Shown piece by piece: positions 30,791 through 60,687 of a DNA stretch of 64,000 nt; within the stretch, counting starts at the first letter, position 1; each line of letters starts with the position of its first letter. Source of the DNA: Stegostoma tigrinum (taxonomy: Eukaryota); assembly GCF_030684315.1 (NCBI RefSeq), contig NC_081369.1:2470689-2534688 (forward strand), given 5' to 3'. Under the pieces are notes generated by a model. It searched no databases and had not been told where the DNA came from. It saw only the letters and a list, made by a program, of their open reading frames with translations. The translations under genes were made by a program, and so were the position numbers.

Positions 30791-33535
30791 GAGATAATGG
30801 GAACTGCAGATGCTGGAGAATCCAAGATAATAAAGTGTGGAGCTGGATGAACACAGCAGGCCAAGCAGCATCTCAGGAGCACAAAAGCTGACGTTTCAGG
30901 CCAGGACCCTTCATCAGAGAGGGGGATGGGGAGACGGTTTTGAAATAAATAGGGAGAGAGGGGGAGGTGGACCGAGATGGAAAGAGGTGAAGATAGGTGG
31001 AGAGGAGAGTATAGGTGGGGAGGTGAGGAGGGGATAGGTCAGTCTGGGGAGGACAGACAGGTCAAGGAGGTGGGATGAGGTTGGTAAGTGGGAAATGGAG
31101 GTGCGGCTTGAGGTGGGAGGAGGGGATAGGTGAGAGGAAGAACAAGTTAGGGAGGAGGGGACGAGCTAGGCTGGTTTTGTGATGCAGCCGGGGGGTCGGG
31201 GGTGGGAGATTTTGAAGCTTGTGAAGTCCACATTGATACCATTGGGCTGCAGGGTTCCCAAGCAGAATATGAAGTGCTGTTCTTGCAACATTCGCGTGGC
31301 GTCATTGTGGCACTGCAGGAGGCCCATGATGGACATTTTGTCTAAGAAATGGGAGGGGGAGTTAAAATGTTTCACGGCTGGGAGGTGCAGTTGTTTATTG
31401 CGAACTGAGCGGAGGTGTTCTGCAAAGTGGTCCCCAAGCCTCTGCTTGGTTTCCCCAATGTAGAAGATGCCACTGTATTGTACAGTGGATACAATATACA
31501 ACATTGGCAGATGTGCTGGTGAACATCTGCTTAATATGGAAAGCCATCTTGTGGCCTGGGATGGGGTTGAGGGAGGAGGTGTGGGGGCAAGTGTAGCACT
31601 CCCTCCGGTTGCAGGGGAAGGTGACGGGAATGGTGGGGTTGGAGGGGAGTGTGGAGTGGACAAGGGAGTCACGGAGACAGTGATCTCTCCGCAAGGCAGA
31701 CAAGGGTGGGGATGGAAAAACATCTTGGGTGGTGGGGTCGGATTGTAGATGGCGGAAGTGTCAGAGGATGCTGTGTTGTATGCGGAGGTTGGTGGGGTGG
31801 TATGTGAGGACAAGGGGGATTCTCTTGGGGCGATTATTACAGGGGCGGGATATGAGAGATGTGTTGCGGGAAATGTGGGAGATACGGTCAAGGGCGTTCT
31901 CGACCACTGCGGGGGGGATGTTGCGGTCCTTGAAGAATGCGTCATCTGGGATGTGCGGGAGTGATATGCCTCATCCTGGGAGCAGATGCAATGGAGGCAA
32001 AGGAATTGGAATAGGTGATGGAATTTTTGCAGGGGGGTGGGTGGGAGGAAGTGTATTGTAGGCAGCTGTGGGAGTTGGTGGGCGTGAAGTGAACATCAGT
32101 TTCTAGCTGGTTGCCTGACATGGACACAGAGAGGTCCAGGGAGGTGAGGGATGTGTTGGAGATGGCCCAGGTGAACTTGAGGTTGGGGTGGAAGGTGTTG
32201 GTGAAGTGGATGAACTGTTCAAGCTCCTCTTGGGAGCAACAGGCGGTGCCGATACAGTCATCAATGTAATGGAGGAAGAGGTGGGGTTTGGGGCCAGTGT
32301 AGGTGCAGAAGAGGGACTGTTCCACGTAGCCTACAAAGAGGCAGGCATAGCTTGGGCCCATGCAGGTGCCCATGGCCACCCCCTTTGTCTGTAGCAAGTG
32401 GGAGGAATCAAAAGAGAAGTAGTGGAGGGTGTGGGCAAGTTCGGCTAGGTGGATGAGGGTGTCGGTGGAGGAGGACTGGTTGGGCCTGCGGGACAGGAAG
32501 AAGCGGAGGGCCTTAAGGCCTACTGCGTGCGGAATGCAGGTGTATAGGGACTGGACGTCCATGGTGAAAATGAGGCATTGGGGGCCAGGGAATTGGAAGT
32601 TCTGGAGGAGGTGGATGGCGTGGGTGGTGTCACGGACGTAGGTGGGGAGGTCCTAGTCCAAGGAGGAGAAAATGGAGTCCAGATAGGTGGAGATGTGTTC
32701 GGTGGGGCAGGAGGAGGCGGAGACAATGGGTCGGCCAAGGCAGGCAGGTTTGTGGATTTTGGGTAGGAGATAGAAGCGGGCAGTGCGGGATTGGGAAACA
32801 ATGAGGTTGGAGGCTGTGGGTGGGAGGTCACTTGAGGTGAAAAGGTGATGGATGGTGTTAGAGATGATGGTTTGGTGCTCAGGGGTGGGGTCATGATCAA
32901 GGGGGCGATAGAAGGAAGTGTTGGAGATTTGGCATTTGGCCTTGGCGATGTAGAGGTCAGCGGGTTTGATGGGGAGGTTGGGGTTGGAGCAGAGGGAGCG
33001 GAGGGCTGCCCATTCTGTGGGGGAGAGGTTCGAGTGACTGAGAGGGGTGGAGAGGTTGAGGTGGTTAATGTCTCGACAGCAGTTGGAGATGAAGAGGTCA
33101 AGGGAGGGTAGGAGGCATGGGGGTGGTGTCCAGGAGGAGGGCTTGTGTTGGAGGCAGGTGGAGGGATAAGTGGAGGGACGGTTGGGCTCCCGGTTAAAGA
33201 AGTAAGCGTGGAGGCGAAGGCAGCGGAAAAACTGCTCGATGTCCAAACGTGACTGGTATTCGTTGATGTGTCAGTGGAGGGGGACAAATGTGATCCCCTT
33301 GTTTAGGACTGACCGTTTGTTCTCAGTCAGTGGGAGGTCTTGGGGGGAAGGTGAAGATTCGGCAGGGCTCAGCGTGGCTGTCTTCTCTGGGGTTGCTGGT
33401 GGTGGGCGGTGTTCCATCAGCAGTGGGCAGAGCTGCGTTGGCGGTGCGGCGTCTGGAGTTGGACGAGCGGGGTGGGCGGCAGCAGCAGCGGTGAGGGTGA
33501 TGTTTGTGGTGTTTGCTGTGTTTGATTATTGGAAC
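30791..33535 (-). mobile_element. Near full-length degenerate Penelope-like element (RT + GIY-YIG)
   Basis: ORFs 32653-33246, 31942-32562 and 31166-31945 carry PKIHKP..GRPIVS, YIDD and YIGET motifs with frameshifts; absent from the paralogous blocks. Confidence 0.92.
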
Positions 33536-33859
33536 AGAAAATGTGTAAAATGCTGTATTTCACTGTAAAAATCAGGGTGTGTCATTGATCTCCCTTCCGA
33601 TTCAGGGAAGGTTCTTTGGCCCTCTCCCTGCATCAAGTGGGTTTTGCTTAAATAAACATCTTCCACATGGCTGAATCCTGCCTGCCTCCTCATACTTTGT
33701 CCCTGATGGACAGTACACTCCCTACATCAATACTTGCACAAAAACGGTTTACGCGGTTTGGTATCCAGTTCACAGCCTTGAATGTGGATTCATTCACTTT
33801 GCTTCCTATAATTGGTGAGTAAATGTTGATACATTACCCAAGGCCCCTCCTTTCAAACA

Positions 33860-35215
33860 AAACCAAAGGAACTGCGAATGTTGTAAATCAGGAATAAAAA
33901 CAAAATCAGGAACTTTCCTTGTTCTATCCAATTGTGGCCCCTGCCCACAACTCTTTTTCCAATACATCAATGATATTATCGGTGCTGCTTCCCTCTCTCA
34001 TCTAGAATTGGAAAACTACATCGATTTTGCCTCCAATTTCCACCTTGCCCTCACTTTCACCTGGTCTATCTCGGACTCACCCCTACACTTCCTCGATATT
34101 TCTGTTTCCATTTCTGGGGATAGACTGGCCACTAATATCCATTACAAACCCATTGACTCCCACAGCTACCTGAACAATATATCCTTACACCTTACTTGCT
34201 CTAAAGACTCCATCCCAATCTCTCAGTTCCTCCACCTCCTTCGCATATGTTCAGATGAAGACAGCTTCAACAGGGAGCCTCCGAAATGTCCACCTTCTTC
34301 CTCATCCAAGGATTTCCCAGCTCCATTGTCGACAGGGGCCTCAACCAGGGCTGACCCATCTCCCACGCTTCCGCCATCACCCCTTCTCTTCCCTGTCACA
34401 ATAGCGATGGGGTTCCACTTGCCCTCAACTAGCATCTACAAACAGAAGATTATCAGGCGCCGTTTCCACCACCTGCAGCAAGATGTCAGAATGAGACACA
34501 TATTCCCTTCCCCTCCCTTGTCAACTTTCCACAGGGACCATTCCCTGTGGGACACCCTAGTCCACACTTCCTTCACCCGCAATACCCCCTCACAGCCCTA
34601 TGGCACCTTCCCCTGTAACTGGCAAAGGTGCAACACCTTCCCATTTACCTCCTCTCTTCCCTGTATCCAAGAGCCCACGCTTACCTTCCAGGTGAAGCAA
34701 CACTTCACCTGCACTTCCCAGAACCTAGTCTACTGCATTCGCTGCTCACAGTGTGGTCTCCTCCACTTTGGGGAAACAAAGCATAGAATAGGTGACTGCT
34801 TCGCAGACATCTACGTTCTGGTCACCAGAAAGATCCTGAACTACCCATCACCTTCCACTTTAACACACCACCTTGCTCCCTGACTAACATATCTGTCTCT
34901 GGCTTGCTGCAGTGCTCCTGCGAAACCCAATGCAAGCTGGAAGAGCAACACCTCATTTTCTGCTTGGGGACCCTACAGCCCTCCAGTCCCAATGTTGAGC
35001 TCAATAATTTTAGGACCTAAACTCTGCCATGTCCAGCCCCCTACCCCATAGACCAGGCCTTGTAACCACATAGCCTGCTATTATGCTCAACTGTTATTCG
35101 TCACTAATAGTCGGCATTAACAACTATTCACACTCCCCGTTGTTATCAACTCTTTGTCTGTCCAACTGCTTTTCTCTCTCTTTAGGCTCAATCCTATTGT
35201 TTACTCCTTACCCCA
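33860..35215 (+). mobile_element. Older Penelope-like fragment (RT thumb + GIY-YIG)
   Basis: ORF 34008-34883: FLDISVSISGDRLATNIHYKP..NLVYCIRCSQCGLLHFGETK. Confidence 0.85.
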
Positions 35216-35579
35216 TTGGCTGGAATCTATCATCTTGTTACTTTTAAAATATACAATAAACTTGAGGACATGTGTTCCAAAAGTTCCTGGATCTGTGAAA
35301 GAAACAAAAAATGCCTCATGCTGTTTTCAATGTTCACTCTCTGATTTTTTTTGTAAACCATGATCCCTCGTTCTGAATCTTCCAAAAGAGGAAAATCTCT
35401 ACATCTACCTTGTCAAGACCCCTCAATATTTTACATGTTTCAATCAATCAACCTGTTCCTGTTTGCAGCTGTCCAATCTTTTCCCACAAGTTAAACAGAA
35501 TTTGCCATCATCTGTATTGCCTCTTCCGAGCTAATTCACAACTTTCCAAGCAGTCTTTCAAAACTCTTCAGACTGATAA

Positions 35580-35811
35580 AGATAACAAGGTGTAGAGCTG
35601 GATGAACACAGCAGGCCAAGCATCATCAGAGAAGCAGGAAAGCTGACATTTCAGGTCTGGACCCTTCCTTTGAATTTTTTCAGAACATTTTCTGAAGAAA
35701 TGTCCAGACCCAAAACTTTCCTGCTCCTCTGATGCTGCTTGGCCTGCTGTGTTCATCCAGCTCGAAACCGTGTTATCTCAGATTCTCCAGCATTGGCAGT
35801 TCCTACTATCT
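35580..35811. mobile_element. Mini Penelope fold-back (older)
   Basis: Inverted termini; TSD ctcttcaga(c)tgataa; absent from the paralogous arm near 50145. Confidence 0.75.
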
Positions 35812-36259
35812 CTCTTCAGATGATAATCATTTTTGTTTTTGTGTACTTGTAAGCTTTTGATAGATGAATTAGAAAAATCATTCATGCCAGCAACAAGTTC
35901 ACAATAAAACAATGTTAATAGATTAGATAGTTATATTTTCCAAATCAATTCAATCCAGAGAACTTGCCACAATATAATCAGTGAAGCACAGTAATTTATT
36001 TGGAAGCTATATTGGTTGTGTGCCATTTTTGAGAAAACAATACACAAATGTATTGAAAGTAATGCTTAGCCATGTATCAACACAATGTGTTCAAATATAA
36101 ATTGATTTCTTTTTCTGATTTCATTTCCACTTCAATAAAGAATAATGCTACATTTTCATTGTTCGGAAACATTCATGAGTCATGCCATCTTGTCCTACTA
36201 TGCCATATTACAATGAGAGTGCAATGTTAAACAGTCCTGGTGTGCGAATGGAGGAGAGA

Positions 36260-37012
36260 GGGTGAGAAAAGTCATAAAGCCAAAGTACAAAGGGATCTGG
36301 GAGTCCTAGTCCAGGATTCTTTAAAGGTTAACTTGCGGGTTCAGTCCGTGATTAAGAAAGAGAATGTAATGATGTCACTTATCTCAAGAGGGTTGGAATA
36401 TAAAAGCAGTGATGTGCTTTTGAGACTTTATAAAGCTCTACTTAGGCCCCATTCAGAATACTGTGTCCAATTTTGGGCCCCACACCTCAGGAAGGACATC
36501 CTGGCACTGGAGTGTGTCCAGCTAAGATTCACACGGATGATCCCTGGAATGGTAGGTGTAACCAACAATGAACGGCTGAGGATCCTGGGATTGTATTCAT
36601 TAGAGTTTAGATGGTTGAGGGGAGATCTAAGAAACATACAAGACATGCATGGCATAGAAAGGGTGGATGCTGGGAGGTTGTTTCCATTCGGTGGGGAGAC
36701 TAGGACCCATGGGCACTGCCTGAGAATTAGAGGCGGTAAATTTAGAATGGAAATGAGGAGACACTTCTTCAGCCAGAGAGTGGTGGGCCTATGGAATTCA
36801 TTGCCACGGAGCACAGTGGAGGCCGGGACGTTAAATGTCTTCAAGGCAGAGATTGATAATTTCTTGATCTCACAAGGAATTAAGGGCTATGGGGAGAGTG
36901 AGGGTAAGTGGAGTTGAAATGCCCATCAGTCATGATTAAATGGCAGAGTGGACTTGATGGGCCGAATGGCCTTACTTCCACTCCTATGTCTTATGGTCTT
37001 ATGGTCTTATGA
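36260..37012 (+). mobile_element. CR1 LINE 3' end
   Basis: ORF 36240-36917 RT C-terminus; tail of ttatggtc repeats; absent from the paralogous arm. Confidence 0.9.
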
Positions 37013-38000
37013 CCAGTGATGGTGCATCAGTCTGCACTGTCTGGGCACAGTGCCACTCTATACTGAACTAAAATTTGAAGAAGAAACTGCCAATTATGAA
37101 CTGAAGCAAATTAACTGAGCAAAATGAACCACCAAAATATCAGAGAGATAAGCAATCAGATCTCTTCAGCTTTCTGGATGTGGAATAATCAACACAAACA
37201 AACATTCTCACAGTAACGGCAAGAGGACAAACAGGATTAAAACTGCTGCCACAGTGGAAGCAGAAAGAAGTATCTATTCAAGCTAGAAAAAAAAAAGAGT
37301 GAAACACAAACAAGTTAAGGACAGTAGCCAAAAGAAGCCTTGTGAACATTTGTCACAGTAAATCCCATCATTTCAAGGCCAAATGCACAGACTGGAGAAA
37401 GGGAAAGAAAATATCAGCATTGCCCCGTGTTGCCAATGCAAGCAGAATTATGATGAATATCTGACGATACACAAACACAGAGAAAAACACTCAGTAATAA
37501 CCTTCATGATCAATATGTCAAACTTCATGCAAATTGAAAGGGCATAAGGAGGTCCTGGACAGTCAAAAATAATTGAGTTGTGATTTTTAGTTGTAACTGT
37601 TGCACAAATTTTAAAGCTGAAATGAATTGGATCCAGGTGATATTACTCGAAGGGAAGAAATTCATCCATATATTTGCAAAATTATGAAAGGGTTTATACA
37701 AGTAAAATAACTGTTTAAATTTGATAAGAAACATAATCATCTCTGTAATAAAAACTGCTTCTATCTTTTTAGCGTAGTTTTGTTTTCCCAAATCGGAGGC
37801 TGCTTTTCACAACTGCATACAGTGGACTATTTTCTTGGTGTTTGGATTTCGATGATGGACTGGAATCATTGAATTTCAGAGCAAGGTAAATCAGTCTGCA
37901 GTCTGTCATGCTTTGTTTTGTCTGAAAAACAGCATTGAGACTGAATTACCATTCATTTAAATCATTCTAGATGAAAATTGCATGCAGGCAACTTTCAACA

Positions 38001-38174
38001 TCATTTCATAATCAACTCATTATGATGAATGAACTCATTATTTATACATGAGATCTTAAAAGTACCTCTGTATATTGTGGTATAGTCCTGTTGTTTTAGC
38101 ATTATGTCATCCTCAGAGCCAACTCGATTAAGAGCAGCATATGTCAGCTTATCCTCAGGCATCTTCCGTTTTCT
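38001..38174 (-). CDS. Terminal cytoplasmic exon with ITIM LTYAAL (38130-38147)
   Basis: ctctag|AGA phase-0 acceptor matches the phase-0 end of exon 40787-40741; RKRKMPEDKLTYAALNRVGSEDDIMLKQQDYTTIYRG...MK*. Confidence 0.75.
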   Translation of the reverse strand, partial: RKRKMPEDKLTYAALNRVGSEDDIMLKQQDYTTIYRGTFKISCINNEFIHHNELIMK

Positions 38175-41100
38175 CTAGAGAGTTAAGATTCAATATTCAT
38201 TTGGTTGTTTTATTTTGGTGTAAAGAGATGCATATACATTCTTAGCATGGACAATTAGTTTGTCGTACTATAAAACAACAAATGCTGGAGATCGCAGTGG
38301 CTCAGGTAACATCCACGAAGGGAGAGCAAGTTAATGTTTCCAGACTAGATGATTCTTCATCACAGTTCTGCTGAAGATTCATCCATACTCAAAATACGAG
38401 CTTTCTCCCTCCGTGGATGCTGTCTGATCTGCTGTGATCTTCAGCATTTGTTGTTTTCAGGACAGATTTCAATATCTACAGTGATGTGTTCCTACAGATT
38501 GTTGTACTGACTTTGCTAACACTTCACTACAATCATTACATTTTCCTCTTTCTGACTTTGAACTGTTTCTTACGAGGAACAGCACATCTATTCACAAGCA
38601 AACATTATTTTCTGATATTATTAATGTTAATCTAATTTTAATTTAAAGTTACATTTGTCAGTTCAATTTAATTTGGGTTTTAAATTCTGAGGGGTGAATT
38701 CCTGTCTTATTACATTCTGCTACAAATTGAACATGCAATAACATTTATTAAATGCAAAAAAAAACTTGACTTTGTTTAGGAACGATAAAAATAAACACAG
38801 ATCCCATTGCTTCACACTAAAATTATAAGTGGCAATTATTTGAAATGAATTAATAACGTCGTTCTGAGGAAAGGTCACGACCTAGAACATTAACTCTGAT
38901 TTCTCTCTGCAGCTGCTGCCAGATCTGCTGAGCTTTTCCAGCAATTTATTTTTTTGTCAGTGGATAGATGGAGGATGGACGGTGCAGGATTGGCCTAAAC
39001 ATTCCCTCACATTAAATTAGCTACATTAGTGAGCCAACTCGAGAGAAGGAATAACTGTACTTACCACTGCTATTTGAAATTTAATTTTAGAATCACCCTG
39101 TTCATTTCTGAATAAGGGAAAGTAATTATTTCAATGGGCCATCTGAATGGTAATAAATAAAAGTGCTGAAATCTGAAGTGAAGACACAAGTGTAGTGCAT
39201 TTTCAGTCAGAAAATGTGCCAACTATTTTGGGAGGAATATATTCAGGTAACTGACAATGAAAAAATGTGACAAGTATGGTGCGCTTTTGTCGAACAGTTA
39301 AGCCACAATATTTTAGTGCTCTAAGGTATACTCTTTGGTCTTCTGTGGAGTATTTCTCAGTCATAGCTAATTTTGTTTTCTCTTTCCATCTGATCCACTG
39401 CTCATGAAACAATAAAACACAGGCTAGGCATTGCACCTGGACATCAGAGGACTTTATTCTGTCACTGACAGCAGAGCAGCTGCAACATTTCACAGAAAGA
39501 TGTGCAGTAATGGAGTAAAGACTTTGGCATAATTTTCTGAAGACCTCCAAGAAAGGCTTGTCATTTATGCTGCACCTGCAGTACGTCAGTGAGTGTATTC
39601 TGCATGAAGTACTATTTTTAATAGGATGTGAGCCTCAGTAGCAAGGCCAGTATTTGGTGCCAATAACTGTTTACTATTGAGAGTCCAACAGCACATCAGG
39701 TTTCTTGACTGACTGCAGTCCAACATTGTTGTCAGGGAGAGTGTTGCAATAAAAGAGGAGGGTACTTTTTGCAGTATTATACACAAGGAAGGAAATGTAT
39801 TTTTTTTTAAATAAAGCAACTTCAGATCCACGACTGAAACTGAGATGATAAAGCATTTGAATTAACTTCAAGACTCTGACTGTTTCAAAATGTATTTAAA
39901 GAGGCTACATCTGCTGATCTGCACTGCATTGAATTGCAGTCAAGAAAAACAATGTGTAATTACATTGTGTCATCTGGACAGTGCAAACAAACCACTGTCG
40001 GGTAATCCTGAGTAAGTCCCACCTGCTCCTTTTCAGTTGCCATAGCTCGGAAGGTGTTTCTCATAAGTTACTGATATCCACATTTGAAAATTAAAAATAA
40101 GAGATGTTTGCATCACAACAGCTTGTTGATTTTTTTTCCCCCAAGATTGTATGTTGCTGTAGCAGAGAGTTCACTAGCAGAGAGACAGCCGAGAGCGTAA
40201 GCTTTCTAAGGAAGCCAATTTGTACAAGCCGTCTGCATAATACATTGAGTTCTTTGGCAGAGTTGCTTGGTAGGAGACAGACGTAATCACCTAACTCTGA
40301 CTAATGCTTAAGTGAATTGAGAATGGCATAGAAAGGGAGAAGAAAACAATATTGTCTCTTTATTTTCCATGGAACCTATCAGAGTGGTCATCACCACAAT
40401 ATAATCAACATTGATTATAATGTAATCAATGTGGCAAAATTATTCAAAATTATTCAGCACTCTGTCACTTGTGAAGTTTGAAAGAAAACAGAAATCAAAG
40501 CTGGTTGTCGGCTTCAAACCCATGTTTGATGATTCAACATCATTGTAACAGTTGTGAAACTTGCTGCCATTTTCTATTTGTTTTATTTTGTTTTTATTTA
40601 GTTGAAGTTGTGTTTTTGAGAGCTGATGAAATCTTCATTACTTAACTTGACATGTTAGGAATACACATTTGTGTTCCCAGCTTAACTGTTCAACTAGACT
40701 TGAAAGTTAAAACAGACAGAGTAAACTAAATTTGTCTTACCACATCATCATGCTGAGCTGGATTTATTGTTTTTTTCTGTGCCCCACCTGAGAAACAACA
40801 AAGACATAAGTCAGCAACAAAAACAGCAGATAATTGTACTCATCAGCCCCAACCAATGAAACCAAAAGATATTTGACTTCTATTCGACATTTGTAAACAG
40901 GGTACAACAGGAAAAACAGTTTCACAATACAGCTCTAAATGTTACACACAGATGCTTTGAATTTATGTTTTGAGGGTTAAAGCTATAGAAACATTTTTCA
41001 GCAAAGAATTTTACCATCACAACTTTGATCTACACCGATACAACTTCTCAAAGTGAAACTTCAAATTTTCTTCTTATTTTATGTTTGATGTGAAGCACGG

Positions 41101-44100
41101 TATATGTTTGGAAGAGGTTTCACATTAATTAGTTGTTTAAATTATACAATTCAGAAATTCAGTTCCCAATTGTGTTAATTTCAGTGAGGCATTTCTATCC
41201 TATTCATACCTTTGGAGATAAAGAACAGAAAACCCTTGACAATCATCACGGTCAATATTAGAATTGCAATTGCACGAGCGACACAACTGGCAGCCATAGT
41301 AACACTGATTTTAGAGGCAAAATCTGCAATGATAACATAAATTCAAAATTAGGGATTGCACCAGAAACTGAAGATACGCACGTTTTAAATGCCATGTGCA
41401 TCGTTCGCAATTGGACTGCCTTGAACCTGTGGTAAATACCATACATAAAGTCTCAGCATTTCAATTTTGTTATCACTTTGTTCAACTAATCCGTATGCAG
41501 CCAGATTAAAAATGCCTGGAATTTACAGAAATAGGTAAATAATAAAAGTACCTCAACTAATGACACATTTTAAATTAATAGAGCTAATCGCAATCAGTGT
41601 TCAGTTCTCTCAGCTATATTGAAAAATTACAAGTTATTTGGTGGGAGATTAGTTGGATTGCACACAGATCAAGGTCAGAAACCATACATAATGGAATCTG
41701 CGGTCAGATTTCCTTGTATTTTCCATGGAGGTAAACTTCATTTGAAATAATTTTAATCTCTTTGCAGCTATGACCCAATCATCTATGACCCTATGTTTTG
41801 TGTTTAATCAAGTATGTGTCACTCTGATGAATAAGGAAAATAAACTGGATGCATGGAGGTGTACCATAGAGTCAGACAGGTTTACAGCATGGAAACAGGA
41901 CCTTCAGCCCAACTTGTCCATGCCGCCCAGTTTTCACAACTGAACTAATCCCATTTGCTTACATGTGATCCATATCCCTCCGTACCCAACCTATCCATGT
42001 ACCTATCCAAATATTTCTTAAATGACAAAATAGTACTCATCTCCATTACTACCTCTGACAGACTTTTCCAGATACTCACATCACTCTGTGTGAAAAAAAT
42101 TCCTCCTCTTTTGTATCACCCCTCTCTTACCTTAAACCTATTCCCCCAACCCCCCCCCCCCCAGTTTTAGACTCCCCTACCATGGAGAAAAGCTGTTGAA
42201 TCTACTTATCTGTGCATCTCATGATTTTATAGACCTCTATAAGGTCGCCCTTCAGTCTCCTATGGTCCAGGAAAAAAAGAAGTCCCAGCTTATCTAGCAT
42301 CTCTTTAGAACTCAAGCCTTCCAGTTCATGCAACATCTGAGGAAATATTATCTGCACGCTTTCTAATTTAAGCATATCCTTTCTGTAGTAGGTGACCAGA
42401 ACTGCACACAGTTACCTGACATTTGGCCTGTCCAAATTCAATACTGTTCATGCTTTCACAAGAATTAATATTGATCATGCAGCCCTTTGCAAGTCATCAG
42501 TGTATGCAGAAAAGAATGATGTGACCAGTGTTGAAGACTGATATTTAATTTTGGTAGTCACATGTGATAACTACATATCAGCTCCAAACAGCATGAAGAA
42601 AGAAAACTTTAAACCATACAATAGGACTTAAATTCAATTTTGACATAACTGCATGCAAATGTGGAGGCAACAGCCACGTGGTATTATCGCTAGACTGTTA
42701 ATCCAGAGACCCAGACAATGCTCTGGGGACCTGAGTTCAAATCCCAACACAGCAGATGGTGGAATCTGAACTCATGGTCTAATGGTGACCGTGAATCCAT
42801 TGTTGATTGTTGGGGGAAAAAACCCATCTGGCTCACTAGTGTCCTTTAGGGAAGGAAACTGCCACCCTTACCTAGACTGGCCCATATGTGATTCCAGAGC
42901 AATGTGGTTGACTCTGAACTGCCCTCTGGGCAATTTGGGATGGGCAATAAATGCTGCCTAGCTAGTGATGTCCTCATCACTAGAATGAATAAAAAAAACT
43001 GTCTTTTGATATTATCACATGCAAATGACTGCCATAATCACTTTTTACATATTTACCCATTTTAAATGATACATGAGCATTCGATGTACCACATATTATG
43101 AAATGTTACCTTTATTTATCACAGTGTAGCTGGCATTTGTCGGAAATGAGCTTGAAACATGATATACTTGACAGGTGTAAACTGTCTCACTCTTGACTGC
43201 CTCTCGCAACTCTAAGGTGCTGATGACTTCATAAAGATCCTCAGGTTTTGCCAGCTGTTCATTCCGAAATCCTGTCAATATGTTTGTGCCATTTTTATAC
43301 CAAGTAAGGTTAAAGTCTTTTGGGTAAAAGTCTGATGTCCTGCACTGGATTCGGAGAGAAGCAGAAAAAAGGTCTTCGGATGGCATGGAGACAATTTTCA
43401 GAGGAGCTGGTAGTGCTGAAAGGTAAATAACATAAATTAGATGAATTGATTTTGCATCTTCTCCAAAAAACGTACTGTTTATTTTAGCAAAACAATCATT
43501 TCGAGCACATCAGTTGTATTAATTTTTGCTATGAACATGACATGAAATTGATGCTACATTTATCAGATTTTAAAAATCCCTCAATTCCTCTCAATACACC
43601 TCCTGCATATTTAGAAAAAAAAGCTTTCAGAATTTTTTTCTACTTAATAACATGACCTTTCTTTTGCAAACAGGATAAAGAATTGGATCTGGATCCGACG
43701 AATTTAGCAAAGACCATGCAAGTGATTGAACCAAGAATTTGGCTCTTCTTGTGAGATAAGAAACATTTCAAAATGCATAGTTTTTCAAATACCTTCAAGA
43801 AGTTTCATCCTGTAACTCCATATTCGTGTGCAAAGTAAAATTTGAAAGTACTGCATTCAATTTTGCTGCAAAATGCACAAATGCATAAAAGCTAAATGCA
43901 TAAAACTGAAGCAACCCATGACCAAATGCAGCAAGAATTGGACAACAGCCGGGTTTGGGCTAAAAAAGTTGACTGTAACATGCAGGCTACACAAATGGCA
44001 GGCAACCATCTTCTCAAATGAGAGACAATATAATCATCCACCCCTTAATATTCAGTGGCATCACCATCCGTGAGTTCCCCACTATCTATAGTTTGGCAGT

Positions 44101-45617
44101 TACCATTGAGCAGAAACAGAACTGGGCGAGCCATATAAATAGAGCCATAGGTCAGAGGCTAGGAATATTGCAGCAAGTAAATCAACTGCTGGCTTCCCAA
44201 AGCCTGCCCGCCATCTGCAAGGCACATGTCAGGAGTGTGTTGGAATGCTCCCCATTTGCCATGCCTACGGGTCGAAAAGCACTTAAGAAGTTGGACTCCA
44301 TCCAGTAAAAAGTCACTCACTCACTGATTGGCACCACATTCAGTCACTCCACCACATATACTCAGCAGCAGCAGCGTGTAACTTCTAAGATGCACCGCAG
44401 AAATTCACCAAAAGCCCTCAGTCAACACCTTCCAAACGCACGATCACTACCATCTAGAAGGGCAAGGGCAGTAAGTATTTGGAAACACCACCAGCTGCCA
44501 GTTTCTCCCAAGCCACTCACCATGCTGACTTGGAAATATAGCACTGTTCCTTCACTGACACTGGGTGAAAATCCTGTAATTTCCCCCTAATCGCATTGTG
44601 ATTCTACTTCCAGCACATGGGCTGCAGCTGTTCAAGAAGGCAGCTCACCACCATCTTGTCAAGGGCAACTAGGGACACGCAATAAATGCTGGGCAGCCAC
44701 TGATGCCCACATCCCACAAGGGATTTATTTTTAACACAGAGTAGATCTCAAATTTTGAGGATTTCCTGGTTCTCCAAGGTCTCCATTTTCTTTAACGTTT
44801 CATTTTAAACAACTGCCAATATTATACGCAAAATGTCTGTGTCTAATACATTGTTTTGATTCCTGTTTTAGATTGTTTTCAAGCAGCTAAGACTCCGTGT
44901 TTATCTGCGGTGACACTTACCATATACAATAAGTTGCACAGCAGCTTGCCCAAGCTTTTGTTTCTGATATGCGACTGCACAGTGATACGTTCCAGCGTCC
45001 CGGACTGTCACGTTCAGGAGTTTAAGGGAGGCTTCTCCTCTAATTACACGGAAGAGCTTTTTGCTGTCCTCCTGCAGAACGGTTTTATTATCTTCTTTCC
45101 ACCAGTAAGCTGTAACATTTGAATAATCAAATTCGGCGGAGAAAGTACAGTGCATGAGAACTGATGAACCTCCCTGCACCGTTTTTCGCGTAAGGTCCGG
45201 ATTCACTTTGGCCGAATTGCCCACAGCAGCTGTCAACCAAGGAAACACACTGAGATTAAATAAGAAGGACAGTCTGCACCGCCTCAGTAACATCTTTATT
45301 CTAAGCCATTGATGCAACAGCAATTTACCACATTTTACTCTTCGACTAATTCTCCCATTTTTAAACTATTGTCCTAATTGAATGTTACATTTTTTTTCTG
45401 ACAGACCCAATGATAATTGCGTTCTCGGAGTAACTGACTTTAAAAAAAAGACAACAAGAATAAAAAATATCCATTTATTAATCAAATTTATCAAATCTAG
45501 TTGTAAATTTACATTGCGTCTTGCTTGTGATCAGTGAATGCTCAGCAAAGAGAAATACGTACCTGAGCACAAGATGCCCAGCAGACAGACATCCCATAGT
45601 GAATGACACACAAACAT
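38001..45617 (-). CDS. Intact multi-exon IgSF receptor, V-C1-TM-ITIM (SIRP-like/antigen-receptor-like architecture, non-rearranging), 334 aa. Exons 45617-45563 (leader), 45229-44921 (V), 43415-43110 (C1), 41323-41210 (TM), 40787-40741 (Cyt1), 38174-38001 (Cyt2 + stop)
   Basis: All introns are GT..AG with matching phases 1,1,1,1,0. Total 1005 nt, no internal stop. Leader MFVCHSLWDVCLLGILCS; V ...VLMHCTF..AYWWKED..ASLKLLNVTVRDAGTYHCAV..VQLIVY; C1 ..RIQCRTSDFYPKDFNLTWYKNG..YEVISTL..VYTCQVYH; TM ISVTMAASCVARAIAILILTVMIV; tail ..EDKLTYAALN.. Confidence 0.85.
39065..39097 (-). CDS. Candidate optional 33-nt cytoplasmic micro-exon (GDSKIKFQIAV)
   Basis: aacag|GGT..GTG|gtaagt, symmetric phase 0/0, fits between Cyt1 and Cyt2; supported by splice signals only. 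Confidence 0.3.
41210..41323 (-). CDS. Transmembrane exon (contains Arg)
   Basis: attgcag|AT..AAAG|gtatga; 114 nt; DFASKISVTMAASCVARAIAILILTVMIVKGFLFFISK. Confidence 0.8.
42664..42998 (+). mobile_element. tRNA-derived SINE of a second family
   Basis: B box gagttcaaatccc; tail gggcaataaatgctg..gaatgaataaaaaaaa shared with the LINEs ending at ~13450 and ~44725. Confidence 0.75.
43110..43415 (-). CDS. Ig C1-set domain exon of the intact receptor
   Basis: ctttcag|CA acceptor and AAG|gtaac donor; 306 nt; C-x4-FYP, W-x-KNG and YTCxVxH hallmarks of C1-set. Confidence 0.92.
43905..44725 (+). mobile_element. Same LINE family, 3' end, in the V-C1 intron of the intact gene (antisense)
   Basis: GQRLGILQQV..KAHVRSVLECSP; aligns with 12600-13450. 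Confidence 0.8.
44921..45229 (-). CDS. Ig V-set domain exon of the intact receptor
   Basis: ttgacag|CT acceptor and TATG|gtaagt donor; 309 nt, phase 1/1; B-strand Cys, C-strand Trp and DxGxYxC motif present. Confidence 0.92.
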
Positions 45618-47550
45618 ATTGGCAGTGAAATTCCAAGACCATCATTTGTGATTGAGAACAGGACAGACAAATGCTTCTTAAATGCTTGTCTCTGTCTCCA
45701 ATTTAATCACATACGTATGTGTGCACCAAAGAGCACATGACTATTTGCAGATTGAAAAAAAAACACTTGCCCTCTCAAATACAGTCCGCTGCTTTTGTCG
45801 CCAGAAACCGCCACAAAAATGACGACACGAGAGAAGGTACAGAAGGTATATCGGAGGTTGTTGTTGAGACGTGATTGGATTGGATAGGATGAAGATTTTA
45901 CCACAGAAAGAATATGAGCCTGAGGGGGAATTTTATTGGGATGCACACATCTGAGATGAGCCGAGACACAGTAGATAGGGAAAAGTTCAGTAACCTTCAT
46001 ACTGCGGTCAGTGATGCGGGGGTTGTAGATTGAAAGAGATTGATAGGAAAGCTTAACTGGGAGATGAGAAAACAGCTTATCACAGACTGTGGTAACTATG
46101 TGGAACCCATTGCCCGAACAGATATCAGTGACAGGCACCTTTGACTTTTCACAAGTTGTTTTTGCTTGGATGTGCACTTGAAGTGCTGTAATCTGAAAGG
46201 CTTCACGCTAAATCCTCGATAGTATGATTTGATTTGTCGGCTTCTTTCTCGGCAGGCAGAGGCAAGTGCTTTTGGTTTTCAGTGTTGTTAACCTCTTTAA
46301 ATGGAATGTTGTGAAGACCACTGTAATTGTAGCAATTTGAAGGACTTGGAGGCAATACTGCTACACCCCGGAATGCAAGAAGGGAAGTGGGATACAGTTA
46401 TAAACGTCTCACTCCTATATCCGAAAGAATTGAGCCGGAATATCAGATTAACCTGCCGAAATCTTTTTTCTTATTACATTTTAAACGCCTCTACAAATTT
46501 AAATTGCATAGCCGACTTCAAGTTTCCAACATCGGAGGAAGCGTCCGTTCAGCGTCCGTCCAGTTCAGGCTCCTCAATGTTAGGTCCACATGGAAGATAT
46601 ATATTCTTACTTTTCTAAACTCAAATGGGTACAGGCCCCATTTGTTCAACCTCACTTCAATTTTTTTGCTTAATTTGATAAAGAGAATAAAGTCACCCAT
46701 TATTACTGATGTCCCGAATCACAAACACCAATATTTCCTCTTGTATGTTTTGTCTCACATTAATGACTGTTCAGTATCTTGCAGACCCCTTGTCTGTTGT
46801 TTTATTTCCTACTATCCCCAATTTCTACCCAAATAGATTTATCACCCTGATTCTCTGAATGACTGTAAAATCTAAATATTGCACAAATGGCATCCATGAT
46901 TGGATAGTCATGATTTGCAATCCTTTCACCATCACCTCGTTTCCTAACCTTAGTGTGTGTTCTTATTTCAAAATATTTGGTACTCAATACTTATACGCTA
47001 TGTCACCACAATGTTATAAAATTGTAATTGTTTCTGTTTATGTATGGTCTGAACTCACTTATTTTGTGAACAACCCAATGAGCATTTCCAAATGTATATT
47101 CATCAGTTTGTTCATTTTTGCCAACTTTGTAACACCTCATCTTGACTGGTAATGTATTCCTTCTCTCTCTCTCTCTCTTTGCCTTTTGTGCCTTTCTCTG
47201 AAGCTCATTTCCCTTGTTCTTATTTTTCTCTCTTCACTTATCTTTACCCTGTGATAGACATCATCTTTCTACGTGACCTCTTGCTTCCACCATTTAGCTG
47301 AAAGCCCTCTCGATTTACCTAGTTATGCCAGCCCCAAGAACACTGCCTGTAGCATGGTTCTGGTCAATCACAATGGTACAGATGTCAATCTCCCCAGTAC
47401 AGCTGGCTGTTCCTCATGACTAACTTCTCTGTCACAATTCTTTGGAAGGAGGCTACTATTAATCTCTGATGACATATGTGCCTTATTTAGAGCTGACTGT
47501 TGTTCTTGAGAAGCTTCCTTGAGGGGAAAATAAGCTCCAGATGAATGGTA

Positions 47551-48603
47551 GATAAAAAAATGTGAGGCTGGATGAACACAGCAGACCCAGCAGCATCTCA
47601 GGAGCACAAAAGCTGAAGTTTCTGGCCCAGACCCTTCATCAGAGAGGGGGGTGGGGTGAGGGTTCTGGAATAAATAGGGAGAGAGGGGGAGACGGACTGA
47701 AGATGGAGAGAAAAGAAGATAGGTAGAGAGGAGAGTATACGTGGGGAGGTAGGGAGGGGATAGGTCAGTCCAGGGAAGACGGACAGGTCAAGGAGGTGGG
47801 ATGAGGTTAGTAGGTAGGAGATAGAGGTGCGGCTTGGGGTGGGAGGAAGGGATGGGTGAGAGGAAGAACAGGTTAGGGAGGCAGGGACAGGCTGGACTGG
47901 TTTTGGGATGCAGTGGGTGGAGGGGAAGAGCTGGGCTGCTTGTGTGGTGCAGTGGGGGGAGGGGACGAACTGGGCTGGTTTAGGGATGCGGTGGGGGAAG
48001 GGGAGATTTTGAAGCTGGTGAAGTCCACATTGATACCATTGGGCTGCAGGGTTCCCAAGCGGAATATGAGTCGCTGTACTTGCAACCTTCGGGTGGCATC
48101 ATTGTGGCACTGCAGGAGGCCCATGATGGACATGTCATCTGAGGAATGGGAGGGGGAGTGGAAATGGTTCGTGACTGGGAGGTGCAGTTGTTTATTGCGA
48201 ACCAAGCGGAGGTGTTCTGCAAAGCGGTCCCCAAGCCTCCGCCTGGCTTCCCCAATGTAGAGGCAGCCACACCGGGTACAATGGATACAGTATACCACAT
48301 TGGCAGATGTGCAGGTGAACCTATGCTTAATATGGAAAGTCATCTTGGGGCCTCGGATAGGGGTGAGGGAGGAGGTGTGGGGGCAAGTGTAGCACTTCCT
48401 GCGGTTGCAGGGGAAGGTGCCAGGTGTGGTGGGGTTGGAGGGCAGTGTGGAGCGAACAAGGGAGTCATAGAGAGAGTGGTCTCCCGGAAAGCAGACAAGG
48501 GTGGGGATGGAAAAATGTCTTGGGTGGTGTGGTCAGATTGTAGATGGCGGAAGTGTCTGAGGATGATGCGTTGTATCCGGAGGTTGATGGGGTGGTGTGT
48601 GAG
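47551..48603 (-). mobile_element. Penelope-like 3' fragment (GIY-YIG + 3' end)
   Basis: ORF 47873-48343 NVVYCIHCTRCGCLYIGEARRRLGDRFAEH; near-identical to 60596-61650. Confidence 0.9.
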
Positions 48604-50554
48604 ACCCCCTCGTTCGCACAACAACCTCTGTATGAAAAAGTTGCCCTTAGACCTCTTTTTAAATCATACCCCTATTACCTTAAACCTTCACCCTCTAGTT
48701 TTGTAATCCTCCACCTCGGGGAAATTAGTGATTATTCATCCTATCCATGGCCTATGATTTTATAAATCTGTATAGGGCCACCCAATACCCTCCGACACTC
48801 CGAAGAAAATAGCTGTAGCCTATTCAGTCTCTCCTGATTTATTAAACCCTCCAGCCATGGTAAATGTCTCGTAAATCTTTTCTGAACCCTTTCAAGTTTA
48901 ACAACATCTTTCCTATTGCAATGAGATCATGGTTTTAAGAGAAACACTATTCCAGGTTTTTATGGCATTCAAATTACACCAGTTAGCTCTAGTTGCTCTC
49001 TTATAGAACAGATATTATTAACCTAGAAAGAATGCGTTAAAACGTACTGGGGGACATTCGTAGCCTATACCATATCGCCAAGAGAGCAGTTAGCAACCAT
49101 TCAATTTATAGTGAGCCACATGCAGGCCAATTGACAATGGCTGAATTACTTCCACAGGACATTAGTAAACTAATGGAAGTAACTACATGAAAATCTTGGA
49201 CTTCTTGTTCACAGATCACTGAAGGTGGCAGGGCTGGTTAAAGGAATGGTTAAGAAACATACAGGGCACATGCTTATGTCTGGAATGGTACAGATTATAA
49301 GAGGAGAGAGGCTACTTTGGAATTTTACAGGACTTTCGTTAGTCCAGAGCGGGAGTGCTATGTTCATTAAGATTTCCTAGGATCCTCCGTGGACTGGAAG
49401 ATTTGAGTTATAAGGAGAGGCTGGATAGTGTGGGCCTTCTTTCCCTAGACCATTGGAGACTGAAGGGTGACCTTACATAGGTCTGAAAAATCATGAGAGG
49501 CAGAGGTAAGTAGATAGCTAACAGCTTTTCCTCATAGTAAGACAGCCTAAGATTCAAAGGCATAGGTTTGAGGTAAAAGGGGAGAGATACAAACGAATCT
49601 AGAGGAGCGATATTTTGACAAACAGGATGATGTGTGTTTGGAATAGCCTGCCAGAGGTAGTGGTGGTTAATTCACTGTAGAGTGGCCCTTTGCCCAGACA
49701 GAGCAGACTGATGCTCCATCCGTGATTGCCCTTTGTTTAGCATTGCAATCTCATTGTAATATGGTACAGTAGGACAAGATGGTATGTCTGATGAATGTTT
49801 CTGAATCATGAAAATGTGTTCTTCATTGAAGTGGGAATGAAATTAGAGAAAAGAAATCAATTTACATTTGAACAAATCATGTTGACATATGCCTAAGTAA
49901 TTCTTTCAATACATTTGTGTGTTCTATTCTCAAAAATGGCATATAACTAATACAGATTCCAAATAAATTACAATGCTTCTCTTATTATATTGTGAAAAAT
50001 TCTCCAGACTCAATTGATTTGGAAAATAGAGCAATCTAATCTATCACCATTGCTGCATTGTGAATTTGCTACTGACAGGAATGCATTCTGTGGCTTGCCT
50101 ATCAAAAACTTAGAAATACAAAGCCATGAAAATGAATTAGCAGTCTGAATAGTTTTTGAAAGGCTGCTTGAAAGTTGTGCACTGGCGATGGAAAGGCAGC
50201 ACAGATGATGACAAATTCTGTTTGTCTTGTTGGAAAAGATTGGACAGCTGCAAAGATGAAGAAGTTGGTTGACTGAAACATGTAAAATCTTCGGGGGTCT
50301 TGACAAGGTAGATATGGTGACATATCGTCCCATGGAAAAATCTAAAACGAGGTACAATGGTTATAAAAAAAATCAGAGTTTGACCATTTAAAACAGCGTT
50401 AGACATACATTCTCTCACAGGTGTCTGAGTCTTTTGGAATACTATTCCTAAAAAGGTAACAGAAGCAAGGTTGAATATTTTTAAGTCACCAACTGATAGA
50501 TTCCAGTGGAGCAAAGAAGTGAAAGATTGCCACGAGTACTGTTTAAATTTGGGG

Positions 50555-51665
50555 TTAGAACATACATAAAGCATAACAGCACAGTACAGGTCCTTCGGCC
50601 CTCGATGTCGTGCCGACCTGTCATACCGACCTGAAGCCCATCTAACCTACACTATTCCATGTACGTCCACATGCTTATCCAATGACGACTTAAAGTTGGC
50701 GAATCTACTACCGTTGCAGGCAAAGCATTCCATTCCCTTACTACTCTCTGAGTAAAGAAACTACCTCTGACATCTGTCCTTTATCTTTCACCCCTCAATT
50801 TAAAGCTGTGCCCCCTCGTGCTCGCCATCACCATCCTAGGAAAAGGGTCTCCCTATCCACCCTATCTAACCCTCTGATTATTTTATATGTTTCAATTAAG
50901 TCACATCTCATACTTCTTCCCTCTGATGAAAACAGCCTCAAGTCCCTCAGCCTTTCCTCGTAAGACATTCCCTCCATACCAGGCAACATCCCAGTAAATC
51001 TCCTCTGCACCCTTTCCAAAGCTTCTACGTCCTTCTTATAATGCGATGACCGGAACTGTACGCAATACTCCAAGTGCGGCCGCACCAGAGTTTTGTACAG
51101 GTGTAGCATAACCTCTTGGTTCCAGAATTCGATCCCTCTATTAATAAAAGCAAAAATGACAAACAGCAGTGGACCCAACACCGACCCTTGCAGTACACCA
51201 CTAGTAACTGGTCTCCAGGATGAACATTTCCCATCAACTACCACCCTCTGTCTTCTTTCAGCAAGCCAATTTCCGATCCAAACTGCTATATCTCCCACAA
51301 TTCCATTCCTCCACATTTTGTACAATAGCCTACTGTGGGGAACCTTATTGAACACCTTGCTGAAATCCATATACACCACATCAACCGGTTTACTCTCATC
51401 TACCTGTTTGGTCACCTTCTCAAAGAACTCAATAAGGCTTGTGAGGCACAACCTTCCCTTCTCAAAACCGTGCTGACTATCCCTAATCAATTTATTCTTT
51501 TCTAGATGATTATAAATCCTATCCCTTATAACCTTTTCCAACACTTTAGCAACAACTGAAGTAAGGCTCACTGGTCTATAATTACCAGGGTTGTCTCTAC
51601 TCCCCTTCTTGAACAGGGGAACCACATTTGCTATCCTCCAGTCTTCTGGCACTATTCCTGTAGAC
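50555..51665 (-). mobile_element. CR1 LINE RT fragment with an in-frame internal deletion
   Basis: ORF 50828-51751 PEDWRIANVVPLFKKG..GSVLGPLLFVIF|AFINRG; the FADD region is missing. Confidence 0.9.
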
Positions 51666-53498
51666 TTTGTGGCTACAATCAGATTTGTGATGACCTTGTT
51701 TGAACAACTTTTCTGATTTTGTGTCCCCAAAGGACTGCCTTCTCGTCCCAATCAATTTATTGAATGTTCAGACTAATAGAGCAGGCTCGAGACACTGACT
51801 TTCTGACACTTGCTTCAAATTCGATTGTTCACATCAACATAACCTGATTTCCTCGTGTGTAAAGAAAAATACCAATAAGGAAGAATTGGGGGAAATCATA
51901 CATTGCTTTAGATTTTAATTAGGTAAACCATAAGGTTCCACAACGGAGTTTATGATGAAGTAATTTTATGCAATTGTGTGTACGGTGAATTTATTGTCCC
52001 TAGGCACCTTCTTAACAGAATTGCCTTGGATTATTGGTGGGAATGCTCTTTTGCTGACCTGTGAATTGTCTTGTTCCAAGGTACCAGTGTGTATCACTTA
52101 AAAAGCATACTTTTATTGTTTTTAACCAAGATTTGTTTGTCATTTTTCAATTTCAGATACCTTATTGTTTCATGTTTTGTAATGTAAACAATGTTTCTTC
52201 CTGTGTCACATGGAAGATCAGTGAGCACCATGAATGTTAATTCATTCCCTGAGTGTAAAGGTTAGCCGATCGGCAACAAACAGAAAATAGATTTTTAAAG
52301 AAGGGTTGTGTTTGGCACTGGAGAGTCTAACTGGTGGGTCAAGCAAAATTCCAAGTTTGGACGTCAGCTATTTCACCTTGTTGTCTGCTTACAAAGGGTC
52401 TCAGATAATGTATCAACATTTATTCACATGAAATTACAAGATTCAAAGTGTGTGAATCATGTGTGAAAGGAGAGTATTGACAACTGGGGACAAAGTCTCA
52501 TGAGGCAGGCAGGATTCAGGCAAGTGGAAGATGTTAATTCAAGCAAAAACCAGTTGATGCAGTGAGAGAGCCAATAAATCTTCCCCGAATCAGAAGGGAG
52601 ATCACTGGCATACTCTGATTTTTACAGTGAAAATACATCATTTTATACATTTTCTGTTACAACTACCAAATACTGTGTAGCCACTGTCTCTCTCCCTTAA
52701 TCCAGACACCCAATCTAGTGGAACACCTAATCAATGATGATCATTCCTATGGACAGCCCCAGGTTCCCATGATTTTATGGTGTTTACCAGACATTGTAAT
52801 CTCTAAGCCTTGGGATTTATCTGCACACCCTATTCATTCACTTTCCAAAGTTACTGGCTACACTCCTTTGTATCTGTCTCAGGCTTCTCATCACTTGAGT
52901 TCTATTATTTATTGTGTTACATCTGCTTTCTTTTATCAAATTCAGCTATTCCTCCAATATTTTCCACAGTCCTAATTGTACAGTAAAAGTATAAAAGACA
53001 GTTAGTAGTTTTATCAATCTACTATAAGGTTAATTTCTATCATAAAGTTAGTTATAAAATGTAAAGTTGTGCAATTATCTGTAATGTAAGCACGTTGTAA
53101 ATATTAGGTTGTGAACAATCTATCTTGCTCAGGGTGGAAGACAGTATTTCCTGAGGCTAATTAACTTTTGCATCCAAGTTTAAATGCTTTTCCCCTCATA
53201 CTTGTATTATGCTTCGGTAATATATTAAAGCTACTTCCATGATTAAGGGAGTTTTAACCAGAGTCAATTTAATATTTCAGTAAGTTTCAAAGATGCAAGT
53301 ATTTACAACAAAGTAACTTTAGCTGCAGTTTTTTACAGCTCTTTAGCAAGTGAAAGAAAGTTAATCTCGCCGGCTCATGGGCTAAAACTGACACCTTGTG
53401 TCATTTGTTTTTTGTGACGATCATCCTTTCATCAGAGGCTGTGATTAGTTACTTAACCATCCCTAGGCACCTTCTTAACAGAATTGCCTTGGATTATT

Positions 53499-54323: not shown

Positions 54324-55960
54324 TCACTTTGTTTGGATGAGTACAGGCCACCCCCACACTTCTTTCGCAATAGTGTAACTGACATTTGCTGGAAATGAGG
54401 TTGAAACATGATGCACTTGACAAGTGTAAACTGTTTCACATTTGACTGCCTCTGACACCTCTAAAGTGCTGACAACCTCAAAATCTGTTGATGTTTACAT
54501 GTTGTTCATTTCTAAATTCAGTCAAGACTTTTATATTGTTTTTGTGCCAAGTAAAATTAAAGGCTTTTGGGTAAAGGACAGAAGTCCTGCACTGCAGAAT
54601 TAAAGAATCGTCTTGTCATGGTACTGGCATAATTTTCAGGGGAGCTGGTGAAATTATGTTGTAAATAGCACAATTGAGACAAATCTAAAGATCTGAATCC
54701 TACTGCAAAGCTTCAATGATTTAATGAACAAAATATCTGTAATTTCGGTGACATAGTTTCTGCATCAGAATTCACTCCTTGCTTGGAGAAAATATCACAT
54801 TTAACATATTGCAAACTTCTGCACCCCTAAAGCAATTGATACAGTATTTTCAAGTTCAGCCACATTAGTTTCTTACAATACACATGTTAATTATCACAAA
54901 TATATTAGTGATGTCGCTCTGCATTCTTCTCGTAACAACTGGATTGTGGATTGTAGAAACTGCAACAGCCACAGTGCAAATGATGGGGACAGCAATTAGA
55001 TATGGGATATTCAAAATATCCAACGTTGCAGGTAATATCTGTATCGTTTCAATTGTTTCCCAATGCTTAGATTAGAAAGAGGGCTCTGGAACTATTTTCA
55101 TTAGAGTTTAGAAGGATGAGTGGGATCTAATTGAAATTTTCAGAAAACTGAATGGCGTGGACACAGTGGATGTTGGGAAGATGCTTCCATTCATAGGAAA
55201 GATTAGGATCCAAGGGCACAGCCTTAGGGTAAAGGCAATACCTTTTAGAACGAAGATAATGAGATGCTTCTTCAGCCAGAGAATTGTGAATCTGTGAAAT
55301 TCGCTGCCAAGGCAGGCCGTGGAGACCAGGTCATTGAGTACATTTAAGACTAAGGTAGATAAGTTCTTGATGATCAAGGGGATCAAGGGTTATAGGGAGA
55401 AAGCAGGAGAATGGGGATGAGGAACTTCTCAGTTGAATTGATTGAATGGTGGAGCAGTTCGATGGGCCAAATGGCCTAACATCTGCTCCTATGTTTGATT
55501 TTGAAGGAGAAAGGGCTGAGGATGAGAACTGGTGAAACTCTCTTTGTGGTGATTCACCTAAAATCCGGTTTTAATTTGGCTGAAATACCCACAGCAACTA
55601 TCAACCAAGGAAACACACCGAGATTAAACAAGAATGATGGTCTGTCCAAATAACATCCTTGTTCCAGGTCATTGATGCAACAGCAATTTACTTTTGCCTA
55701 ATTGACTAATTCTCAAATTTTAAAATTATTATCCTCATTGAATGTCATTTTTTCTTCCCCCAAACACAGCAGTAAATGAGTTCTATGTATACTTAACATG
55801 CAAAAAACCCTCACAAAATTAATAATAACAAAATTAACTGTCCACGTAGTTTTCCAATCTAGCTTTAAGCCCACATTGCGACTTAATTATGAACAGTTAA
55901 TACTAAGCTAAAAAAAAATGCCCCTGTACACGCAATGCACAGCATACAGACACGCTGTTG
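54324..55960 (-). pseudogene. V-C1 pseudogene D: leader remnant ~55925-55960, 5' part of V 55597-55499 (rest deleted at a CR1 insertion), C1 ~54652-54361
   Basis: C1 SPAPLKIMPVP*..ILQCRTSVLYPKAFNFTWHKNN..FEVVSTLEV..VYTCQVHHVSTSFPANVSYT; inverted homologue of pseudogene C. Confidence 0.85.
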
Positions 55961-60659: not shown

Positions 60660-60687
60660 GACGTTTCGGGCCCAGACCCTTCATCAG
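60660..60687 (-). ncRNA. Minimal hammerhead ribozyme motif (also - 30890-30917, 53563-53590; mutated at 47615-47642)
   Basis: Reverse complement reads CTGATGAAGGGTCTGGGCCCGAAACGTC. Confidence 0.7.

Follow-up and report, generated by a model that had tools for sequence, protein, structure and literature searches.

A V-C1 receptor gene of the zebra shark as a candidate activation-leaning partner of an inhibitory neighbour

In a window of 64,000 nucleotides from the zebra shark, Stegostoma tigrinum (NC_081369.1, positions 2,470,689 to 2,534,688; positions given below without a contig or locus are those of this whole stretch), a seven-exon gene on the minus strand specifies a receptor with one V-set and one C1-set immunoglobulin domain, a transmembrane segment and a cytoplasmic tail. 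In the best reading of its sequence, the gene would be an old, derived member of a set of paired receptors that descended from an inhibitory ancestor. With a probability of about 0.6, its product is predicted to be the activation-leaning partner of an inhibitory neighbour, binding the same ligand, joining a dimer of an adaptor with immunoreceptor tyrosine-based activation motifs (ITAMs) through Arg240 and retaining a weak residual brake. This reading is preferred because the Arg residue, the loss of two distal tyrosine motifs and the identity of the V domain to that of a paralogue with Gly and a full set of immunoreceptor tyrosine-based inhibition motifs (ITIMs) all point one way.

The arginine codon and a second gene carrying it

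Joined by AG/GT junctions in one frame, the exon pieces yield a spliced translation of 331 aa, equal to the NCBI zebra shark model P0001, which carries the automatic NCBI name SIRP-beta-1-like. A six-frame search placed AASCVARAIAIL at 41294-41259 and ILTVMIV at 41258-41238 of the minus strand, within the transmembrane exon 4 (41210-41323), for which an AlphaFold model has one helix comprising residues 223-262. The codon of Arg240, CGT, was found where it had been predicted (41276-41274, minus strand), and the same search and the spliced model recovered the predicted tail motifs LTYAAL and DYTTIY. Contigs of runs X1 and X3, obtained from two samples of one study either of which may be the source of the assembly, extend across the Arg codon; no difference is listed for the transmembrane exon, and exon 6 is covered with 0 differences. 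Bisulfite reads X14 and run X17 gave no useful coverage of the exons. Since contigs of two samples agree with the assembly, neither the Arg codon nor the length of exon 6 is an assembly slip.

Inhibitory paralogues have Gly (GGT or GGA) in place of Arg240. Nine copies of the transmembrane exon were detected by a DNA search, and two of them have Arg at this column. In a DNA tree of transmembrane plus tail regions, built from nine genes (seven of the transmembrane-exon set together with L027 and L046; two orphan transmembrane exons were omitted), the two Arg genes group with SH-aLRT/UFBoot values of 96/98, and the UFBoot values for the two halves are 87 and 93. Their branches measure 0.11 and 0.21, a separation of about 0.32 substitutions per site. 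Both Arg genes share an exon 6 of 109 nt, a length seen in none of the seven Gly genes, and because the two Arg genes group in the tree, a single deletion shared by both is probable.

Arg is also present at the same column in the epaulette shark model P0003, a fused model without a tail of its own. Comparison of the codon across contigs, paralogues and sharks showed that it is neither an error nor a private variant. The original prediction had proposed that an inhibitory receptor became activating through one GGT to CGT change. The direction of this change is supported and GGT is indeed found in the two closest inhibitory paralogues, but that a single base brought it about is not supported, as Arg travels with an exon 6 shorter by two bases. 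Nor is a recent switch supported, since Arg is common to the distant zebra shark paralogue and the epaulette shark model.

The truncated tail

Exon 6 (38066-38174) comprises 109 nt compared to 111 nt in the inhibitory paralogues, the two bases being missing near its 3' end in DNA alignments with the Gly genes; contigs X1, X3 and X4 concur. Because of this shortage, exon 7 (37866-37921) is read out of frame up to a stop at 37868-37866, which costs the tail two distal tyrosine motifs. Out of frame, these are still recognizable as the ancestral ITIM LIYLAL (37877-37894; LTYLAL in the inhibitory paralogue P0002) and the terminal ITIM-like motif PLYAVV (37808-37825; PVYAAV in P0002). While the tail of P0002 contains four tyrosines, two of them within consensus ITIMs, one ITIM is left in the gene studied, the membrane-proximal LTYAAL (38130-38147), which is the same in P0002. 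When the tail is shuffled, 8% of the random sequences contain an ITIM consensus; despite this rate, the designation of LTYAAL as an ITIM holds by homology, because it sits at the conserved ITIM position of the family. The further tyrosines noted in DYTTIY (38070-38087) are present but fit no ITIM or ITAM consensus. The first is new and creates YTTI, a YxxI motif, and the second belonged to an ancestral T-x-Y-A-E motif which the frameshift severed directly after its Tyr.

Two further arrangements of the tail were considered. An ITAM made of LTYAAL and YTTI was rejected, since 15 residues lie between them versus 6-8 in the consensus (PMC8102735). An AG located 19 nt into exon 7 could restore the frame, but its use was judged unlikely; its context is purine-rich, and it also occurs in the partner locus L016.

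In all three organism B runs used, from three studies, one contig aligns to exon 6 along about 200-220 bases with about 95% identity and is without the two extra bases. It differs by 11 other letters and one gap, and the gap whose depth agrees with this contig lies in the intron (38058). A more distant organism B contig has two bases inserted at 38075. Depth subtraction suggests that the new Tyr codon is present in organism B as well, two of its letters being kept among the rows displayed (116 rows are outside the display).

The gene could also be a decaying, unexpressed duplicate in which Arg and frameshift are neutral damage. Many members of the cluster are broken, among them the paralogues L017 and L018 and the second Arg gene, which has a stop in V and no tail tyrosine left, and compared with most paralogues, exon 6 shows 10 non-synonymous codon differences and one synonymous. 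Against decay, the frame is open and the junctions are canonical after 0.11 substitutions per site, exon 6 has the same length in organism B, and the V domain was probably homogenised recently; this explanation is accordingly considered improbable.

L017 and L018 (G000:C19 2.54-2.60 Mb) are close Gly-type paralogues in decay, L017 with a stop in exon 7 and L018 with stops in V and a lost exon 6 donor.

The putative inhibitory partner and the shared V domain

The partner gene, P0002/L016, is located about 160 kb away at G000:C19 about 2674800 (about 2.675 Mb) and has Gly (GGT) at the Arg column. The V domains, specified by the single exon 2 (44921-45229; Pfam V-set, E 4.9e-11), are identical in 102 of 102 residues, while amino acid identity is 90% for C1 (exon 3, 43110-43415; Pfam C1-set, E 2e-13) and 72% for the transmembrane exon. 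On the DNA level, the longest run without mismatch extends over 915 bp (45212-44298, minus strand); the next longest is 36 bp. The flanks of this tract are about 80% identical to L016, with 200-bp bins mostly at 70-87%, and at 18% divergence a run of 915 bp has a probability near 1e-79. From this pattern, the tract is likely a product of gene conversion. Assembly collapse is a less probable source of the identity. In both X1 and X3 contigs, letters of the partner are found at 45250-45281 at about half depth, ending where the copies converge. After subtraction of a third paralogue, the tract has about double depth in X3 (39.7 vs 17-25). Apparent V and C1 variants in the contigs were considered as alleles and rejected, as they were traced to L017.

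Homogenisation is limited to the ligand-binding exon, and the transmembrane and tail parts have diverged from L016. Both this pattern and the linkage of a gene with a closely similar ectodomain to one with a transmembrane segment and tail of the opposite type are features of paired receptors.

Over about 5 kb, the ectodomain of the second Arg gene is 94-100% identical to that of another Gly/ITIM gene, and identity is 51-82% towards the transmembrane part. As judged from these alignments, the two genes are a second putative pair, and the Arg module stands behind two different ectodomains, both of which have their counterpart in an inhibitory gene.

The remaining exons of the gene are exon 1 (45563-45617; 55 nt, phase 1) for the signal peptide, for which the frame fits the N-terminus of P0001 and ATG context and donor were read, and the short cytoplasmic exon 5 (40741-40787). 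The V-C1 ectodomain lies upstream of the part covered by the original prediction, which also does not mention the frameshift or the paired paralogue.

A family member with broken V and C1 exons is located at 28566-29844 (plus strand). Past the tail exons of the other Arg gene, at L020 7064-8294, there is a similar broken copy in the same relative orientation. This arrangement suggests a duplicated block.

Membrane position, adaptors and alternatives

In the best hydrophobic windows of 21-23 residues, obtained with a crude scale, Arg240 is at position 1-4 and Lys253 in the inner third. The Gly partner favours an upstream register ending before Lys. In receptors that pair with FcR-gamma, Arg is at position 3-4 of the transmembrane segment and little else is required (PMC1440944, PMC8102735). 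Transmembrane exons with Asp resembling those of FcR-gamma and CD3-zeta are present in the genome, the two PF11628 matches above cut-off both having this residue. As far as sequence can indicate it, coupling to FcR-gamma or CD3-zeta is likely. A complex prediction for the transmembrane segment with an FcR-gamma-like dimer gave 0.17 (mark, 0.34).

According to the preferred reading, Arg240 would lie in the first turn of the membrane helix and pair with the Asp pair of an FcR-gamma or CD3-zeta dimer. Binding of the ligand shared with the inhibitory partner would then lead to an ITAM signal, conversion would keep the V domain matched to that of the partner, and the single leftover ITIM would act as a weak or vestigial brake.

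Lys253 (41235-41237, minus strand), located 13 residues past Arg240 at a predicted inner-leaflet position and absent from the original prediction, is common to most Gly-type paralogues. That Lys253 instead of Arg docks a DAP12-type adaptor is very improbable. In a shifted register it would be inside the span, but Gly/ITIM paralogues have the residue too, and it lies in the inner third, versus a Lys near position 9 in DAP12 partners (PMC1440944).

A number of points weigh against the activation-leaning partner. The best 19-residue window begins just after Arg240, and the crude scale includes an ad hoc position weight. The hydrophobic block extends over about 31 residues and the AlphaFold helix has no membrane boundaries; in an ancestral register, Arg240 would be buried in the middle of the membrane. 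Furthermore, catfish LITR bound adaptors without needing a transmembrane charge (PMC4810170). Arg may mark the outer membrane edge of a weakened inhibitory or decoy receptor without adaptor, in which the frameshift merely cuts inhibitory strength. The position of Arg outside the 19-residue window and five columns deeper than the older activating Arg of the family, as well as the retained ITIM, are in line with this proposal; it is nevertheless unlikely, as Arg accompanies the loss of the tail in the two zebra shark genes and, in a separate case, in the horn shark, and is kept across species.

The tail adds to the opposing points. LTYAAL is intact, exon 7 has no stop in its old frame and retains both Tyr there, which is expected in 9-16% of neutral simulations, and skipping of exon 6 would, by its sequence, yield a tail with two motifs. 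A basic transmembrane residue and a consensus ITIM in one chain are the mark of bifunctional receptors. It is conceivable, with a rather low probability, that the gene specifies a genuinely bifunctional receptor of the KIR2DL4 or CHIR-AB kind, in which adaptor-coupled activation and a maintained ITIM, perhaps together with a two-motif isoform lacking exon 6, would tune or reverse the signal. Besides the open frame, retention of LTYAAL as in the inhibitory paralogue, its loss from the second Arg gene, the probable YxxI Tyr in organism B and the smooth-hound model P0051, which also combines a transmembrane Arg with the family ITIM, speak for this possibility. Against it, the ITIM consensus survives in 52-60% of neutral simulation runs (0.11-0.14 substitutions per site), so that its survival is consistent with neutral drift. 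In codons of the old exon 7 frame where L016 and L017 agree, four non-synonymous and no synonymous changes were counted, and the old stop is lost. Moreover, the family ITIM was found in only two of 27 hand-listed Arg models, P0001 and P0051, although automatic models may miss tails.

Three more points weigh against the activation-leaning reading: five of ten bases at the 3' end of exon 6 are different in the two Arg genes, the depth of the identical tract in X1 is not doubled after subtraction of the third paralogue (6.6 vs 5-8), and expression and splicing of the receptor are predictions from genomic DNA.

Comparison with known systems

KIR2DL4 and activating KIR of macaques likewise have Arg near the N-terminus of the transmembrane segment and one ITIM (PMC8102735, PMC3601082). 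In macaque KIR, the Arg transmembrane and tail module was recombined onto another ectodomain, and the second Arg gene described here has the ectodomain of another subfamily. Unlike in KIR, the shark tail was cut by a coding frameshift and not by a splice-site change, and the ectodomain is composed of V and C1; its best Pfam matches are V-set and C1-set and not the C2-type domains of KIR, CHIR and the LRC. With V and C1, the gene is not a member of the KIR/CHIR family; the resemblance to KIR is a likeness of features, and adaptor pairing is predicted for the shark gene.

Identity confined to the ligand-binding exon, with diverged transmembrane and tail parts, is likewise known from KLRC, KLRI, KLRB, Ly49 and PIR pairs (PMC3210942). 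From all of these, the gene differs by its occurrence in a cartilaginous fish and by its V-C1 architecture. V followed by C1 is also found in SIRP-alpha and SIRP-beta1, a family with ITIM members and members with a charged transmembrane segment. The SIRP ectodomain is V-C1-C1 and SIRP-beta1 has a central transmembrane Lys, whereas in the shark gene a single V and a single C1 precede the transmembrane exon, and Arg is present instead of Lys. Human SIRP genes are linked to NSFL1C; for this one marker, SEP-domain matches were obtained on C5 and C23 and none on C19. The SIRP-alpha ectodomain was among the top PDB matches (E 7e-14), but B7-H3 and antibody light chains reach similar scores, and sequence and fold searches of PDB yielded generic V-C matches only. 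On the ectodomain tree, the only SIRP-like row, from a turtle, sits on a long branch.

In chicken CHIR-AB and turkey TILR-AB, which belong to a family with A, B and AB types, a single chain likewise has both a charged transmembrane segment and tyrosine motifs (PMC3601082). They keep two motifs and have C2-type domains, whereas the shark gene lost two motifs. The non-rearranging VJ-C1 molecules UrIg and UrIg2 of sharks also have a single-exon V followed by C1 (PMC12227049, PMC10751288), and UrIg2 was rank 6 in the fold search. UrIg has at least three C1 domains and 17% identity, and the word ITIM is absent from the accessible part of PMC12227049. A search for MHC class II beta was uninformative, as it gave no match anywhere in the genome. 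Tweety genes are located on C26 and C27 and not on C19.

The wider family

Among 64 V-C1-TM models (TM, transmembrane; isoforms included), 22 were flagged as Arg. Of seven rows that matched a pattern of both Arg and ITIM, five were outside the family. In the horn shark, model P0006 has Arg one column upstream and a short tail without Tyr, and P0026 has Gly and two ITIMs; identity between them is 94% for V, 86% for C1 and 82% for the transmembrane part. Because Arg sits in another column, this pair is probably of separate origin. A tree built from ectodomains comprised 47 rows, of which the P0003 row was disregarded as it represents the wrong domain pair of the fused model; both putative pairs are sisters in it at 100. 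The Arg label requires 12 changes on this tree compared to a mean of 15.1 for shuffled labels, and 34 of 500 shuffles were as low.

An older type of Arg (HLIYR, IPRF) is found in other sharks and in rays, and one such exon is present in the zebra shark cluster (L040 54-161, G000:C19 about 2252053, IPRFVLG...IVDH). The transmembrane exon of the older HLIYR-type gene gave no match in the zebra shark genome with the query used, while its V and C1 are present. L029 contains tandem orphan transmembrane exons (4343-4459 and 2900-3010; G000:C19 about 2.723-2.724 Mb), both without a GT donor; one has Arg (IVARC) at the older activating column and its twin has Val. L041 (G000:C19 2296000-2305999) is likely the orthologue of P0051, with V, C1 and the ITIM exon present; its transmembrane exon was not found there.

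Additional broken or partial V/C1 exons of the family are located at 54369-54648 (minus strand), 690-2550 (minus strand) and 7400-7760 (plus strand), the last resembling the second V of P0003. The family has a second large V/C1 cluster on G000:C19 (9.18-10.26 Mb and 13.68 Mb), in which tandem near-copies are spaced by about 77-78 kb. Decayed open reading frames at 31169-36914, 47371-48703, 50831-51751 and 60646-63278 appear by eye to be reverse-transcriptase-like and retrotransposon-like, and are ordinary repeats.

Significance

A broader, still speculative proposal is that Arg occupies at least three positions in this family and that sharks repeatedly rebuild activating from inhibitory V-C1 genes. 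The Arg-plus-frameshift module of carpet sharks would have been re-paired with ectodomains by conversion, and the copy in the window would be a maintained dual-signal receptor, an independent analogue of KIR2DL4 with the number of ITIMs set by splicing of exon 6.

The principle of paired, converted receptors is already known. No description of this family was found for cartilaginous fish in paper listings and in passages of PMC10751288 and PMC12227049. The pattern of activating receptors derived from inhibitory ones with binding domains matched by conversion, as in KIR, Ly49 and PIR, would be extended to cartilaginous fish. The identical V domain provides a natural experiment, in which two receptors expected to bind the same ligand differ in transmembrane segment and tail. 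By analogy to mammals, such pairs suggest that the ligand is either a pathogen mimic or a self ligand that evolves fast.

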